From assembly GCA_963558075.1 (NCBI GenBank), contig CAUWFN010000001.1, positions 7,000 through 70,999 on the forward strand: a stretch of DNA of 64,000 nt, written 5' to 3'. Each line of letters begins with the position of its first letter. Within the stretch, counting starts at the first letter, position 1. This stretch comes from an uncultured Clostridia bacterium (GTDB lineage Bacteria; Bacillota; Clostridia; Peptostreptococcales; Anaerovoracaceae). The translations under genes were made by a program, and so were the position numbers. The notes beneath the pieces are model-generated. The model was not told the DNA's origin. It did no database searches and saw only the letters and a list, made by a program, of their open reading frames with translations. Below are positions 27,101 to 32,090 of the stretch, one piece after another.

Positions 27101-27129
27101 TTGATTATGAGAGCACAACGTGATAATAT
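27101..27129 (+). promoter_or_regulatory. Sigma70-type promoter of the SCP2/aminotransferase/transketolase operon
   Basis: TTGATT-17 nt-TAATAT with a TG extended -10. Leaves an approximately 130-nt leader. Confidence 0.5.
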
Positions 27130-27270
27130 ATGATTGTAAAAATTCAGATAATTAAAACTGGCGTAAACGTAAGCAAGATGCCCCCTCAGACAGAGGAAGG
27201 CCCCGGGCTCTAGCTGAAATTTTGCCGGCAGGTAATTATATCGATATGAATATCGGAGGGAGTGATAAGA

Positions 27271-28026
27271 TTGAAGAGTGAGAGAACCTTAGCCTACATT
27301 AATATGTTCGCTATACTTAAGGATCTGGAAGTGCTTGTGAAACTAGATGACGAGGCAAAGAAAATTGCCAGCGTAAATCCACCTATTTCAATCGGATTTA
27401 ACGTTACAGATGGTCCACAGGCTACACTTACATTTGACAATGGAAATTGCACTATGACAGAGGGCATGGGCGGAAAAATCAAGCTGAAGCTAAAATCGCC
27501 AGAGCACCTAAATCAGATGATTGATGGAACCAAGAATCCTACACCATACGGTGGTTTTACAAAGATTGGATTTTTAACAAAGGATTTCATCAAGCTTACA
27601 GATATTTTAACAAAATATCTAAAAGCGACTCCCGAAGATCTTGCAGACAGGGCATTCTTCGAAAAGAGTACAGAGATGATGTTTTATCTGATTGCAAATG
27701 CACTTTCTGCGATTGGAAATTATGATGAAATAGGAAAAGTTTCCGCATCCAAGATTCCTGATGGAACTATTTCTATGGAAATTGGCGGAGGACCTTGTGC
27801 AGAGATTGTTGTAGAGGGTGGTCACATGACTACATACAACAGAAAGGCCGAGAATCCTAGAGCATACATGATATTCAGAGATATGGATGTTGCCCGCGGT
27901 CTGTTCGAGGGAACGGTAGAGTCGATGAGTGCAATCGCAACAGGAGAAATTCAGATGAAGGGATTCATCCCTATGATTGACAATCTGAACAAGCTTCTTG
28001 CAAGAGTTGCAATGTATTTAGGATAG
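27271..28026 (+). CDS. SCP2-like (sterol/lipid carrier fold) domain protein, paralog of 31269..32090
   Basis: C-terminal pattern ..ARGLFEGTVESMSAIATGEIQMKG..LNKLL resembles SCP2 domain ends. Alignable to the last gene of the operon. TTG 27271 (GGAGGG RBS) or GTG 27262 as start. Confidence 0.5.
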   Translation: MKSERTLAYINMFAILKDLEVLVKLDDEAKKIASVNPPISIGFNVTDGPQATLTFDNGNCTMTEGMGGKIKLKLKSPEHLNQMIDGTKNPTPYGGFTKIGFLTKDFIKLTDILTKYLKATPEDLADRAFFEKSTEMMFYLIANALSAIGNYDEIGKVSASKIPDGTISMEIGGGPCAEIVVEGGHMTTYNRKAENPRAYMIFRDMDVARGLFEGTVESMSAIATGEIQMKGFIPMIDNLNKLLARVAMYLG

Positions 28027-28037
28027 GAGGATTTGAG

Positions 28038-29325: not shown

Positions 29326-30195
29326 ATGGCTCTGAAAAAAGATGAATGGATTGCTTTAGAAAAGAAGGCATCACATTTAAGACAGCTTACTTTAGACACA
29401 TGTAACTGGGCAGGCAGTGCTCATATGGGCGGAAGCTTAAGCTCAATAGACTTTCTGACACTTCTATATTACAAGTATCTGAACTTTGATCCGAAGGATT
29501 ACGAAAATGAAGATAGAGACAGATGCATTGTCAGCAAAGGACATATCGGAGTTGCTCTTGCTGCACTGTTCTCAGATCTTGGACTTATAGAACACGAGGA
29601 ACTGAAAACCTTTAACTTGACAAACAGCAAGCTTGGAATCCATCTTGACTCTAACAAGGTAAAAGGTCTTGATACATCTACAGGTTCACTGGGACACGGA
29701 AGCGCAATGGCTCTTGGAATGGCACTTGCAGCAAGAGTTAGAGGAAAAAAATATAAGACATGGCTGCTTTTAGGAGACGGCGAATGTGACGAGGGAAGCG
29801 TATGGGAAGCTGCAATGGCAACTGCAAACTATAACGTGACAGACCTTATTACAGTGGTAGATAGAAACAAAGCAATGATAGACGGATTCACAGAAGACGT
29901 TATGAAGCTTGAGCCTTTTGCTGACAAATGGCGTGCATTTGGCTTTGATGTTATCGAAGTTGATGGACACCATATGGATAAGCTCAGCGATGCGATGGAA
30001 AAAGCTCTAGCAGCGACAGAAAAGCCTGTATGTATCATTCTTGATACAGTAAAAGGCGAGGGTATATCTTTCATGGCTGGTGACTACAAGTGGCACTATG
30101 GTGCGATGGATGACGAAAAGTACAAGAAGGCTACAGATGACCTGAAGAAGTACGAAGCTGAAAGAATAGAAAGAGCAGAAAGGGAGGCTAAGTAA
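29326..30195 (+). CDS. Transketolase-family enzyme, N-terminal (TPP pyrophosphate-binding) subunit
   Basis: SKGH, GSLGHG, GDGECDEGSVWEA motifs. 289 aa. Confidence 0.85.
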   Translation: MALKKDEWIALEKKASHLRQLTLDTCNWAGSAHMGGSLSSIDFLTLLYYKYLNFDPKDYENEDRDRCIVSKGHIGVALAALFSDLGLIEHEELKTFNLTNSKLGIHLDSNKVKGLDTSTGSLGHGSAMALGMALAARVRGKKYKTWLLLGDGECDEGSVWEAAMATANYNVTDLITVVDRNKAMIDGFTEDVMKLEPFADKWRAFGFDVIEVDGHHMDKLSDAMEKALAATEKPVCIILDTVKGEGISFMAGDYKWHYGAMDDEKYKKATDDLKKYEAERIERAEREAK

Positions 30196-31265
30196 TGGGC
30201 GGCATGAATTATACAGCAGTTGAAAGTACAAAAATGGCGACTGCGGAGATTTATGGAAAAACATTAGTTGAGTTGGGAGAAAAAGACCCTAGAGTTGTAG
30301 CTCTTACTGCAGACCTTGCAAAATCAACTAAAATCGGTGATTTTATGAACAAATTCCCGGAAAGGTTTTTCAATGTCGGTATAGCAGAGCAGAACCTATT
30401 TGGTGTTGCAGCAGGCATGGCAAAATGCGGTCTTGTTCCTTTTGCTAGCACATTCTCTGTATTTGCATCCCTTCGTGCAACAGACCAGCTACATGCTGAT
30501 ATATGCTATCAGAATGTAAATGTAAAAATAATCGGCACACACAGCGGAACATCTTTTGGTCAGGCGGGCTCAACTCACCATGCTATAGAAGACCTTGCAG
30601 TAGTAAGAAGTCTTGCGAACATGAGAGTTATCTGTCCTGCTGACGGATACGAAACAGCGAATGCGATAAGAGCAGCATATGAAATTGATGGTCCTGTATA
30701 TATTAGAATTAATAGGGGATTTGACCAGACAGTATATACGGGAGAAGATTATGGATTTGAATTTGGCAAGGGCGTTCAGATGACTGATGGTGATGACCTT
30801 ACAATAATTGCTACTGGAAGCTGCGTATTCCAGGCTATCCAGGCAGCACGTATTCTAGAGGGCGATTACAACATCAATGCAAGAGTAATTAACATACACA
30901 CTATCAAGCCTATTGATAAAGAAATCATAGAAAAAGCTGTATTCGAGACACGCAGAATCATAACCGTAGAAGACCATACAGTTATAGGAGGGCTTGGCTC
31001 AGCTGTATCTGATGTTGTTGTTGAAACAGGTAAAGCTTGTGCATTCAAAAAACTCGGCTTAAACGACAGATTCAGTGCAATCGGATTCCATGAAGACCTC
31101 ATGTCAATCAATGGAATAGATGCAGAATCCATCGCAAAAGAAGCAGTTGAGATGATGAAAAAATCTAAGGTTGTTGAATTTGATAACGAGGGTACAATTG
31201 TCAAAGCTCTCAAGTTTGATGACAGAGACTTTGAGGTTGATATTGATTGGACTGACGAGGTGTAG
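30195..31265 (+). CDS. Transketolase-family enzyme, C-terminal (pyrimidine-binding) subunit with about 40-aa C-terminal extension
   Basis: GIAEQN and GSTHH-type GQAGSTHHAIED motifs. ATG overlaps the upstream stop codon (TAATG). Confidence 0.85.
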   Translation: MGGMNYTAVESTKMATAEIYGKTLVELGEKDPRVVALTADLAKSTKIGDFMNKFPERFFNVGIAEQNLFGVAAGMAKCGLVPFASTFSVFASLRATDQLHADICYQNVNVKIIGTHSGTSFGQAGSTHHAIEDLAVVRSLANMRVICPADGYETANAIRAAYEIDGPVYIRINRGFDQTVYTGEDYGFEFGKGVQMTDGDDLTIIATGSCVFQAIQAARILEGDYNINARVINIHTIKPIDKEIIEKAVFETRRIITVEDHTVIGGLGSAVSDVVVETGKACAFKKLGLNDRFSAIGFHEDLMSINGIDAESIAKEAVEMMKKSKVVEFDNEGTIVKALKFDDRDFEVDIDWTDEV

Positions 31266-31268
31266 ACT

Positions 31269-32090
31269 ATGGTTACACAGAATGATTTATATGCATCAAA
31301 GATATTCTTCAACTCGGCAATTCCTCTTCTTAGAGTAATTATCGAGGATAAACCGGAGCTATCAAAAAAATTTGCAGGGAAAAATTTTGTTTTTCAGATT
31401 TCTGCAATGTATGACAAGGCTCCTGACGGAAAAATGGCTACTCACCTAGTGTGTGAAAACGGCAAGTTTACTGTTCATGTCTCAGACGTACATCCTAATC
31501 CGGATATTGAATTATGCTTTAGCGATTTGAATAAATTTATAGCATTTTTCACTGGACGTGGAACTCCACTTCCAAAGCTGAAGGGAGTGTTTAGTAATCT
31601 TGGAACATTCATTCCTCTTCTAAAAGGGCTTTTGACTATGTCAAAGCTTCTCAGTGCAGAGGATGCACCAAAGGATCCTGATGACCAAAAACTTACAGTA
31701 AAATTGTATTTTTACTTGCTTTCAAATGGAATCAGCCAGCTTAACAAAGCAGGTCATGAAAAAATACACAAGTGGGCACTTGAATCGCCAGATAGAGCTT
31801 ATGCTTTTGCTGTTACAGGTTATCCTGACCTACAAAGTTATATAAGAGTAAAGGAAGGAAATTCAAAGGCTGGAAGAGGCGAGTATCCTAGATGTAAGCC
31901 TTTCCTAACCCTTAGATTTGACAGTCCGCTTCATGCGCTTGATATTCTTATGGGAAAAGGCGATATGATAGAATATATAGCAGCCGGATACCTGACTGTT
32001 GAGGGTGCTCCGGAATTTGCAGCCGTAATAGGAGACTTCATGTTTGCAGTAGGTGATTATGCAAAAGGTCTGTATCTTGATTGGAAATAA
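31269..32090 (+). CDS. SCP2-like domain protein, paralog of 27271..28026
   Basis: 273 aa. N-terminal and C-terminal regions align with the first gene of the operon. SCP2-like C-terminus. Confidence 0.5.
   Translation: MVTQNDLYASKIFFNSAIPLLRVIIEDKPELSKKFAGKNFVFQISAMYDKAPDGKMATHLVCENGKFTVHVSDVHPNPDIELCFSDLNKFIAFFTGRGTPLPKLKGVFSNLGTFIPLLKGLLTMSKLLSAEDAPKDPDDQKLTVKLYFYLLSNGISQLNKAGHEKIHKWALESPDRAYAFAVTGYPDLQSYIRVKEGNSKAGRGEYPRCKPFLTLRFDSPLHALDILMGKGDMIEYIAAGYLTVEGAPEFAAVIGDFMFAVGDYAKGLYLDWK

Follow-up and report, generated by a model that had tools for sequence, protein, structure and literature searches.

The 64,000-nucleotide stretch of DNA described here (the window) belongs to an uncultured Clostridia bacterium of the family Anaerovoracaceae (GenBank assembly GCA_963558075.1, contig CAUWFN010000001.1, positions 7,000 to 70,999 of the forward strand). 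It carries a cassette of five genes on the forward strand, occupying positions 27271-32090 in the open reading frame (ORF) listing in the order A, AT, TKN, TKC and B. The cassette encodes a class III aminotransferase (AT) and a split transketolase (TK), bracketed by two proteins with an SCP2 fold, which together may act on a long hydrophobic amino-alcohol.

The five-gene cassette and its proteins

The genes and the most distinctive part of the transketolase are as follows.

27271-28026, forward strand: protein A, 251 amino acids (aa), tandem double SCP2 fold (AlphaFold confidence score pLDDT 95; SCP2-fold matches in Foldseek)
28038-29297, forward strand: AT, class III pyridoxal 5'-phosphate (PLP) aminotransferase of the FumI type (Pfam Aminotran_3, 114 bits)
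29326-30195, forward strand: TKN, transketolase N-terminal (PP-domain) subunit (Pfam Transketolase_N; 43% identity to the Carboxydothermus split TK)
30195-31265, forward strand: TKC, transketolase Pyr and C domain subunit (Pfam Transket_pyr and Transketolase_C; 46% identity to the C subunit of the same enzyme)
31164-31262, forward strand: C-terminal extension of TKC, residues ~324-356, ending in DIDWTDEV (31239-31262)
31269-32090, forward strand: protein B, 273 aa, tandem double SCP2 fold (pLDDT 94.8; SCP2-fold matches in Foldseek)

The genes are tightly packed, with gaps of 11 nt between A and AT, 28 nt between AT and TKN, -1 nt between TKN and TKC, and 3 nt between TKC and B. The start codon of TKC thus overlaps the stop codon of TKN by 1 nt. 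These positions and gaps agree with an earlier note on this DNA, which had been made from the letters and their ORFs. A GGAGG-type ribosome-binding site lies upstream of each of the five genes. Gene A is assigned the start codon TTG at 27271, with a spacing of 9 nt to its ribosome-binding site. The resulting 251 aa match the length of the orthologs, which share the N-terminus MK..KTLAYINMF, and the GTG at 27262 chosen by the ORF tool is three codons too early.

The Pfam domains of TKN and TKC, and their identity to a known split enzyme, bear out the earlier recognition of N- and C-terminal transketolase subunits. The nearest TK of solved structure is that of Carboxydothermus hydrogenoformans (ChTK, PDB 6YAK/6YAJ), which shares the α2β2 split and the same residues for thiamine diphosphate (ThDP) and Mg binding as well as the same histidines. 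ChTK accepts bulky non-phosphorylated aldehydes and is the sole TK of its organism (PMC7661550). As the only one, it is presumably the sugar-phosphate TK there.

The active site was compared in an alignment of E. coli TktA, ChTK and 79 orthologs from the cassettes. The ThDP/Mg motif GDG...N is kept, and D155, N185 and the cofactor-activating E411 are invariant, as are the catalytic and hydroxyl-binding histidines H26, H66, H100, H261 and H473. S385, H461 and R520 are also invariant in this clostridial clade. R358 is replaced by A, S, G or T and is never Arg. The motif 'GEDG' has become 'GQAG' or 'GQGG', with E468 invariably Gln and D469 either Ala or Gly, never Asp. Further replacements are P27 to I/M/W/V/L, G99 to I/M/V, P101 to L, G262 to Y, A360 to I/V and T388 to I/M, together with R91 to N, Q118 to H, R446 to H and Q474 to H. 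Those at P27, G99, P101, A360 and T388 introduce bulky hydrophobic residues. In contrast, ChTK keeps R358, E468, D469, P27, G99, P101 and G262. In transketolases, R358, S385, H461 and R520 bind the substrate phosphate, H26, H100, H261, D469 and H473 bind sugar hydroxyls, and D469 selects the stereoisomer (PMC11387542). Substitution of D469 is a known engineering route to new or non-natural aldehydes (PMC11387542, PMC7661550). The cassette enzyme therefore looks like a true ketol-transferring TK, in which the retained H100 and H473 are taken to bind the donor's C1 hydroxyl. The channel of the enzyme looks rebuilt for a partner that is non-phosphorylated, hydrophobic and devoid of a hydroxyl next to the carbonyl.

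In an exhaustive search of 1.84 billion representatives, the nearest clusters share GAAG or GQGG signatures and the same C-terminal tail. Other split TKs with STAG, GLGG and GEAG follow, and canonical GEDG enzymes appear only after those. At 50% clustering, the cassette TK clade is small and stands apart from the 'GEDG' TKs. The TK is thus distinct by sequence from housekeeping TK. With the NCBIfam transketolase model, TKN and TKC score 248 and 278 bits against a cut-off of 488, half-length subunits being compared here with a full-length model. Four other split transketolase C subunits (P0244, P0246, P0248 and P0250) also have an altered 'GEDG' (STAG, GLGG, GEAG and STLG) and carry no acidic tail, which suggests a wider diversity of non-canonical split transketolases.

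AT was described in the earlier note as a PLP aminotransferase similar to glutamate-1-semialdehyde (GSA) aminomutase, HemL. Its class III PLP assignment stands, and its catalytic lysine, K263, is invariant among the orthologs. Functionally it resembles FumI of Sphingopyxis sp. MTA144 (aminopentol aminotransferase, PDB 6HBS) rather than GSA aminomutase. FumI shares the class III fold and is the best solved relative: it is the top match in a PDB search with the AT sequence (259 bits, best HemL 145), and with a family profile of 25 orthologs it reaches 395 bits (E 4e-117), the best HemL only 225. Against the HemL models of NCBIfam, AT reaches 205, 192, 188 and 159 bits with cut-offs of 398, 486, 527 and 637, all below threshold. 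A housekeeping HemL identity was rejected on these scores, FumI outranking every HemL by 170 bits, and AT is placed by its sequence in the FumI branch. Identity to FumI is 34% for the window AT and 34-41% across 74 orthologs. FumI transfers the C2 amine of hydrolysed fumonisin B1, a 2-amino-3-hydroxy long-chain polyol and sphinganine analogue, to pyruvate, yielding the 2-ketone with a Km of 1.1 µM (PMC3136697). It differs from the cassette in being part of a fumonisin-degradation cluster of an aerobic alphaproteobacterium, together with a carboxylesterase, and no report was found of FumI being linked to a transketolase or an SCP2 partner.

Proteins A and B were modelled with AlphaFold on 48 and 51 homologs, respectively. 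Both models show a pattern of helix, four strands, helix, strand and long helix twice per protein. All Foldseek matches against the PDB with E < 1e-3 are SCP2-fold proteins (E 1e-5 to 1e-3; TM-scores of 0.55-0.72 relative to the target), each covering about half of the query. The SCP2 fold that the earlier note had set out as refutable was thus obtained for both flanking proteins. The likeness it had placed in their C-termini spans the whole proteins, with two domains each. The structural neighbours include the C-domains of the alkylsulfatases SdsA1 and Pisa1, UbiJ-SCP2, the SCP-2L domain of human MFE-2, yeast, insect and archaeal SCP2 proteins, and mosquito SCP-2 with a C16 fatty acid. Their ligands comprise alkyl chains, isoprenoids, sterols and fatty acids. 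In the ubiquinone metabolon, UbiJ exemplifies a soluble SCP2 module that holds a hydrophobic tail while soluble enzymes work on the head. A and B share the fold of such presenters as UbiJ, MFE-2 SCP-2L and the SdsA1 C-domain; they differ in being tandem double SCP2 folds over the whole polypeptide, in forming their own families with sub-threshold Pfam scores, and in being tied to a TK.

With the Pfam SCP2 model (PF02036), A and B score 17.5 and 19.1 bits, below the gathering score of 21.3, and the matches lie in their N-terminal halves. Some orthologs have a precomputed PF02036 match. No NCBIfam model matched A or B, and PDB searches with their sequences returned nothing meaningful. A and B are full-length paralogs, as proposed earlier (BLASTP 23% identity, E 2e-4; hhalign probability 97.8%, E 1.2e-12 over 220 columns). 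Their homolog families comprise 402 and 685 clusters at 90% identity, respectively, all annotated as 'hypothetical proteins', and A and B constitute a family of tandem-SCP2 partner proteins in their own right. In the ortholog alignments, B has many more invariant polar residues than A. Residues ~197-212 of B (31857-31904) form an invariant Lys/Arg-rich loop (GNSKAGRGEYPRCKPF) that is absent from A. This loop is a candidate docking site for the acidic tail of TKC, or a candidate catalytic feature. A is proposed to be a lipid carrier that partners the aminotransferase.

The unusual acidic tail noted earlier on the C subunit is real, and its last eight residues form a conserved motif. TKC ends in [DE]x[DEN]-W-x-D-E-[VFY]-COOH in all orthologs, for example DIDWTDEV or DEDWGDEV, and the linker ahead of the motif is anywhere between 0 and ~30 aa long. 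Neither E. coli TktA nor ChTK has the tail. It is proposed to be a docking peptide for the SCP2 partner, because a conserved end after a linker of variable length is the expected pattern. One distant relative, P0269 (L089:8001-9806, 601 aa), consists of a TKC with 'GQGG' fused to a complete B-type tandem-SCP2 domain, and a Ser/Thr/Pro-rich linker replaces the acidic tail. The fused domain matches B with an hhalign probability of 97.6% (E 3e-12) and a BLASTP E of 4e-17. The fusion, the constant co-travel of the genes and the conserved tail speak for physical coupling of TK and B.

Distribution, neighbours and transcription signals

The distribution of the cassette was surveyed with one genome per species by searching for relatives of B, which were present in 229 species-level genomes. 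Eighty loci were fetched. The five genes occur in the same order between unrelated flanks in 67 of these, six are cut by contig ends, and seven contain TKN-TKC-B only. A and AT are missing together from the vicinity in these seven, from which it follows that B belongs with the transketolase and A with the aminotransferase. A replacement aminotransferase was sought upstream in the genomes lacking A and AT, and nothing relevant was found. By annotation, the carriers of the fetched loci are Bacillota, nearly all Clostridia or related classes and mostly of the Oscillospiraceae, Christensenellaceae and Clostridiaceae, besides two bins labelled Bacteroidaceae/Bacteroides. Among their sources are the guts of chickens, humans and termites, digesters, groundwater and marine sites (sediment or vent). 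Three are cultured: Brassicibacter mesophilus DSM 24659, Oceanirhabdus seepicola and Paramaledivibacter caminithermalis DSM 15212. In two termite-gut metagenome-assembled genomes, ~3 kb lie between AT and TKN (L045:5324-8051 and L056:5805-8052) and separate the halves A-AT and TKN-TKC-B. These inserts encode a trypsin-like peptidase and ORFs without a family match.

Neighbouring genes were surveyed by clustering and annotating the flanking ORFs of 81 loci, with counts taken within three genes of the cassette. An Old Yellow Enzyme (OYE)/FadH-type Fe-S flavoenzyme of 690 aa (enoate-reductase, BaiCD and BilR type) occurs in 19 loci, in two separate clades and varied arrangements. A D-2-hydroxyacid dehydrogenase follows B directly in 18 loci, all of a single clade with long synteny, so that this is weak evidence. 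A class 3 aldehyde dehydrogenase (ALDH) lies immediately 3' of B in four loci, and a tungsten aldehyde:ferredoxin oxidoreductase (AOR) is found in three, as well as four genes downstream in L076. DegV (fatty-acid-binding) and VOC/glyoxalase genes occur in ten and six loci, respectively. For the neighbouring ALDH, the best resemblance is to the benzaldehyde dehydrogenase MdlD (448 bits), and the flavoenzyme resembles BaiCD and BilR to the same degree; all of these neighbour scores are far below the family cut-offs. The three unrelated types of aldehyde- or enal-handling enzyme point to an aldehyde intermediate. Regulators of the TetR (15 + 4 loci) and MerR (nine loci) families also flank the cassette, and such one-component regulators beside many cassettes speak for inducibility. 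The cassette contains no short-chain dehydrogenase/reductase (SDR), hydroxysteroid dehydrogenase or transporter, and none recurs beside it in the 81 loci except for a major facilitator superfamily gene in five.

P0269, together with P0242, led to an environmental clade of high GC content (53-71%), represented by the loci L089, L090-L092 and L093-L097. The order TKN-TKC-B, with the B-like gene following TKC, is found in all eight high-GC contexts examined. The TK signature is the same, except that H461 is replaced by Leu, and the acidic W-containing tail is present except in the fused P0269. A gene of the fatty-acid-hydroxylase family (PF04116) adjoins the module in six of the eight contexts, and this adjacency argues for a lipid substrate. 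One of five PF04116 proteins matches AGMP_C, the C-terminal domain of alkylglycerol monooxygenase, below the Pfam cut-off. L090 and L093 encode class III aminotransferases that are not orthologous to the window AT (23% identity), and L095 encodes a class I aminotransferase. The latter was considered as a serine-palmitoyltransferase-like enzyme, which was rejected as it proved to be AspAT-like. The presence of non-orthologous aminotransferases at these three loci argues that transamination is functionally tied to the TK-B core. L093 resembles a biosynthetic cluster, with an acyl carrier protein (ACP), SDRs, radical S-adenosylmethionine (SAM) genes and a second aminotransferase, and radical SAM/SPASM genes are carried by some high-GC members. 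The high-GC modules may correspond to the clostridial cassette in aerobes, or may be a variant of it devoted to biosynthesis. Two genes of 299 and 341 aa after B in high-GC loci were tried as A-like proteins; they are not A-like and have no Pfam match. As a single instance, L096:1338-1913 contains an Mpo1-like gene (PF06127) five genes from a TKN-TKC-B-hydroxylase module. The yeast Mpo1 family takes part in phytosphingosine breakdown.

Around the window operon, the following signals and regulatory features were found.

26362-26883, forward strand: TetR-family regulator gene (Pfam TetR_N, E 1.4e-10) with its own terminator
26963-27004, forward strand: hairpin that terminates the TetR gene, with a T-run behind it (-18.7 kcal/mol, z -5.6)
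27048-27134, forward strand: AT-rich stretch with several sigma-70-like hexamer pairs (sites from 27048, 27059, 27079 and 27107, 9/12 consensus positions each)
32138-32183, forward strand: intrinsic operon terminator, a perfect 20-bp stem between an A-run and a T-run (-29.2 kcal/mol, z -11)

The last of these is the strong terminator of the earlier note. With terminators on both sides, the five genes form, as far as the sequence allows one to say, one independent transcription unit. Since these two terminators bracket the unit, the promoter probably lies in 27048-27134. The promoter-like element named in the earlier note, TTGATT-17-TAATAT at 27101-27129, fared less well: it matches 8 of 12 consensus positions, and such sites are no commoner in the region than in shuffled sequences (23 against 18.2 +/- 4.2). 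A riboswitch or structured leader in the ~130-nt 5' untranslated region (27135-27275) was looked for and rejected, as there was no Rfam match and the folding z-score against shuffles was -0.8. The TetR gene has an ortholog only in the nearest relative (L007, 58%), and other genomes have different TetR or MerR genes adjoining the cassette. It is a candidate local repressor that stands outside the conserved cassette.

The cassette is an island between unrelated housekeeping genes in the window. Upstream, 23840-26214 on the reverse strand encodes a chorismate mutase/prephenate dehydratase and a class I aminotransferase. Downstream, ORFs at 33710-36774 on the reverse strand resemble polyphosphate kinase and exopolyphosphatase (recognised by eye). 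A degenerate group II intron occupies 32182-32939, starting with GTGCG 3 nt past the T-run of the operon terminator. It scores 143.6 bits with Rfam for D1-D4 and 44 bits for domain V/VI, and its ORF (32481-32867, 128 aa) retains only the maturase GIIM domain, the reverse-transcriptase part being gone. Bacterial class C introns typically insert just behind terminator hairpins. A manganese-efflux MntP gene lies shortly downstream, at 33068-33649. MntP with a CDF cation-efflux gene, or CDF alone, is found beside the cassette in two unrelated genomes (L005:6038-7492 and L003:15780-16949). This adjacency in three contexts is probably a coincidence.

Proposed pathway and alternatives

The operon is tentatively read as a soluble system that cleaves a long hydrophobic amino-alcohol, the most likely substrate being a sphingoid-base-like 2-amino-1,3-diol. 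In a first step, the tandem-SCP2 protein A would take up the lipid and present it to the FumI-type aminotransferase, which would use a 2-oxo acid (pyruvate in the case of FumI) as acceptor of the C2 amine and leave a 1,3-dihydroxy-2-ketone. The resulting CH2OH-CO-CHOH-R is the donor pattern of transketolases, and a ThDP-dependent TKN2TKC2 enzyme would cut it between C2 and C3. This would release a fatty aldehyde, or a 2-enal if the base were unsaturated at C4. The 'active glycolaldehyde' C2 unit left on ThDP would be transferred to an aldose or aldose-phosphate acceptor, or released. B, held at the transketolase by the acidic TKC peptide, would deliver the ketodiol or remove the aldehyde. In other genomes, the aldehyde would then be processed by the neighbouring Fe-S flavin ene-reductase, class 3 ALDH or tungsten AOR; in the window organism, genes elsewhere in the genome would have to do so.

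The choice of substrate follows from the combination of enzymes. No scaffold other than a 2-amino-1,3-diol would let a FumI-type transaminase and a ketol-specific TK act in sequence, and with a long alkyl group as R this diol would be a sphingoid base. FumI itself acts on a 1-deoxy substrate with a C1 methyl group, whereas the cassette TK keeps H100 and H473, taken as implying a C1 hydroxyl. The 2-enal expected from a 4-ene base matches the ene-reductase neighbours. A breakdown or detoxification direction is favoured because FumI is catabolic, regulators flank the cassette and neighbouring enzymes would remove aldehydes. The earlier note had suggested that a non-canonical split TK makes or breaks an α-ketol on a hydrophobic, SCP2-held substrate, with AT working on the neighbouring carbonyl or amine. 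This general logic is supported by the SCP2 fold, the loss of R358 and D469 with a hydrophobic channel, the FumI grouping, the TKC-SCP2 fusion and the lipid- and aldehyde-related neighbours.

The sphingosine-1-phosphate (S1P) lyase route of eukaryotes and some bacteria offers a parallel, with the same net C2-C3 split as proposed here. In that route, the long-chain base is split into hexadecanal or 2-hexadecenal and a C2 fragment, and an ALDH3A2-type dehydrogenase and an enoyl reductase act afterwards, much like the ALDH and ene-reductase neighbours of the cassette. It differs in requiring ATP-dependent phosphorylation and a PLP-dependent retro-aldol lyase that yields phosphoethanolamine. The proposed route would instead combine transamination with ThDP chemistry, produce a ketol C2 unit and need no phosphorylation.

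Several points weigh against this reading. The substrate is deduced from an enzyme of 34-41% identity and from active-site logic. Three of the four phosphate ligands (S385, H461 and R520) are kept, so that one substrate may still be phosphorylated. The ketol of canonical TK is 3S, corresponding to threo-(2S,3S) aminodiols such as fumonisin, while natural sphinganine is erythro-(2S,3R). This mismatch would call for a different preference of the enzyme, for epimerisation at C3, or for a substrate other than a common sphingoid base. With its many invariant polar residues, B could be more than a passive carrier, for example an epimerase. The core contains no transporter, kinase or acyl-CoA gene, and the 64-kb window contains no homolog of the ene-reductase, ALDH, AOR, DegV or 2-hydroxyacid dehydrogenase. 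The TK module can work without this aminotransferase, as the seven genomes with TKN-TKC-B only indicate. The biosynthetic-looking high-GC contexts with ACP, SDR and radical SAM genes weaken the catabolic direction, and the MdlD-like ALDH and the BaiCD/BilR-like flavoenzyme leave room for an aromatic or steroid substrate.

Biosynthesis is the first alternative, considered unlikely but a serious competitor of the main reading. The TK would join a B-held fatty aldehyde to a C2 ketol taken from hydroxypyruvate or a ketose phosphate, and AT would aminate C2, giving a sphingoid-like long-chain base (2-amino-1,3-diol) without serine palmitoyltransferase. TK reactions are reversible, and D469 substitutions open up new acceptor aldehydes (PMC11387542, PMC7661550). 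Synthetic cascades of TK and transaminase yield 2-amino-1,3-diols (PMC5813273). They use the same two enzyme classes in sequence on a ketodiol/aminodiol scaffold, and D469, R358 and R520 are among the E. coli TK positions altered for non-natural aldehydes; they differ in being man-made, running in the synthetic direction on short-chain substrates and lacking carriers. A natural precedent for TK followed by an aminotransferase exists in anisomycin biosynthesis, where AniP, a ThDP enzyme of the TK family with D469 replaced, and the aminotransferase AniQ act on non-phosphorylated hydrophobic substrates, AniQ on the neighbouring carbonyl (PMC11387542). AniP differs in being a single chain of ~580 aa that has lost the histidine-rich motif and carries Asp at the position of R520, whereas the cassette TK is split and keeps the histidines and R520. 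The donor of AniP is an aromatic 2-oxo acid, its Streptomyces clusters contain AniN and AniO, and SCP2 proteins are absent; conversely, the cassette contains no AniN-like SDR.

Genomic context bears on the biosynthetic alternative from both sides. The D-2-hydroxyacid dehydrogenase after B is of the glyoxylate/hydroxypyruvate-reductase type and could supply hydroxypyruvate, yet its link to the cassette is confined to one clade with extended synteny. The cluster-like high-GC contexts with ACP, SDRs, radical SAM genes and a second aminotransferase also contain the PF04116 hydroxylase, whose family includes the sphingolipid C4-hydroxylase. In anaerobes, AOR can reduce acids to aldehydes; even so, the ene-reductase and class 3 ALDH neighbours fit aldehyde removal better than supply. 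FumI, the nearest characterised aminotransferase, is catabolic. A patchy distribution and the proximity of TetR or MerR genes are what accessory operons for catabolism or detoxification typically show. The clostridial cassette has neither an acyltransferase nor a ceramide-synthase-like gene in it or next to it, and sphingolipids are not known from these Clostridia.

A different hydrophobic substrate is a second and quite improbable alternative. It could be a steroid with a 17-hydroxy-20-keto-21-ol side chain, AT acting on the resulting ketone, or an aromatic amino-alcohol or amine giving an aromatic aldehyde. The earlier note had drawn on steroid cleavage as a model, but no finding is specific to steroids. 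The steroid-17,20-desmolase DesAB of Clostridium scindens, compared by description, is likewise encoded by adjacent genes for N- and C-terminal TK halves in a gut Firmicute. It cleaves the C(OH)-C(=O)-CH2OH side chain of a hydrophobic, non-phosphorylated substrate and leaves a carbonyl on the lipid (PMC3735941, PMC12876203), as is proposed for the cassette. Mutations at R358, S385, D469 and R520 raise TK activity on aromatic aldehydes (PMC7661550). SCP2 folds bind sterols, the recurrent flavoenzyme scores about alike with the BaiCD and bilirubin reductase models, and the 448-bit resemblance of the ALDH to MdlD would suit an aromatic product, although all of these neighbour scores remain far below the family cut-offs. 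The cortisol-induced desABCD operon contains a 20-hydroxysteroid dehydrogenase (desC/desE) and a transporter (desD), neither of which accompanies the cassette. Unlike the des operon, the cassette encodes a FumI-type aminotransferase and two tandem-SCP2 proteins. Neither a conserved acidic tail at the C-terminus nor an SCP2 partner is known for DesB. Steroid side-chain cleavage needs no aminotransferase, yet AT is part of the core, and its closest characterised relative acts on an aliphatic chain. Corticosteroids are also unlikely in termite guts, digesters, groundwater and marine sediments or vents, where the cassette also occurs.

Equally doubtful is a third alternative, in which AT makes the acceptor of the TK. 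AT would interconvert a long-chain primary amine and its aldehyde, or a pool of free fatty aldehydes would be drawn on, for instance from the breakdown of plasmalogens or ether lipids, and TK would add a C2 ketol, either to lengthen the chain or to detoxify the aldehyde. Primary amines and aldehydes are substrates of relatives in the HemL/GntE branch, but the donor-forming route agrees better with the regiochemistry of FumI, whose target amine sits on a secondary carbon next to a carbinol. The loss of D469 is compatible with non-hydroxylated aliphatic aldehyde acceptors; the ketodiol product, however, would have no obvious use, and the adjacent aldehyde-oxidising or -reducing enzymes would compete for the aldehyde. 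Clostridia are rich in plasmalogens, and enzymes of the alkylglycerol-monooxygenase type release fatty aldehydes from ether lipids. The PF04116 hydroxylase of the high-GC relatives could be such a partner, but the weak AGMP_C match concerns only one of five proteins and is below the Pfam cut-off.

A chance cluster of housekeeping genes, comprising a split TK of the pentose phosphate pathway, a tetrapyrrole HemL and two unrelated small proteins, can hardly be entertained: the best NCBIfam models are indeed named 'transketolase' and 'glutamate-1-semialdehyde 2,1-aminomutase', and the nearest solved TK is an active sugar-type split enzyme, but the scores are far under the cut-offs (HemL 205 against 398; TK 248/278 against 488), no ortholog retains R358 or D469, even the best HemL trails FumI by the margin given above, the TK clade separates from the 'GEDG' enzymes at 50% clustering, a TKC-B fusion exists, and the five genes travel together across families between unrelated flanks.

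Novelty and significance

No description of this gene combination was found in the full-text literature, subscription-only papers not being covered. The cassette is regarded as a conserved, unnamed operon of a non-canonical C-C lyase/synthase of the transketolase family, with a realistic chance of representing a new pathway of long-chain-base metabolism. The TK subfamily can be recognised by H-[IVMWL] at position 27, [IMV]-H-[LM] at 99-101, W-H-Y at 260-262, G-Q-[AG]-G at 467-470 and the acidic W-containing C-terminus. At residues targeted in the engineering of E. coli transketolase, the cassette TKs supply naturally occurring variants.

Bacterial disposal of free long-chain bases without the ATP-dependent S1P lyase is poorly understood, especially in anaerobes. 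Among these bases are sphingosine from host and diet, an antibacterial compound, and toxins analogous to sphinganine, for example fumonisins. If sphingoid-base cleavage is the function of the operon, it would provide a phosphorylation- and oxygen-independent split into a fatty aldehyde and a C2 unit for sugar pathways. This route would be present in Clostridia of gut, rumen-type, termite and digester environments, and would bear on sphingolipid signalling between host and microbe as well as on the detoxification of mycotoxins in feed.

If the reaction runs in reverse, it would be a new way to make sphingoid lipids. The operon would then be a natural TK-transaminase cascade that builds sphingoid bases on SCP2 carriers, a second and unrelated origin of these lipids, which is deemed unlikely. 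That cascade would be present in anaerobic Clostridia and, together with the hydroxylase, in aerobic high-GC bacteria. In either direction, the cassette defines a TK subfamily and a family of tandem-SCP2 partner proteins, with the support of a Rosetta-stone fusion.

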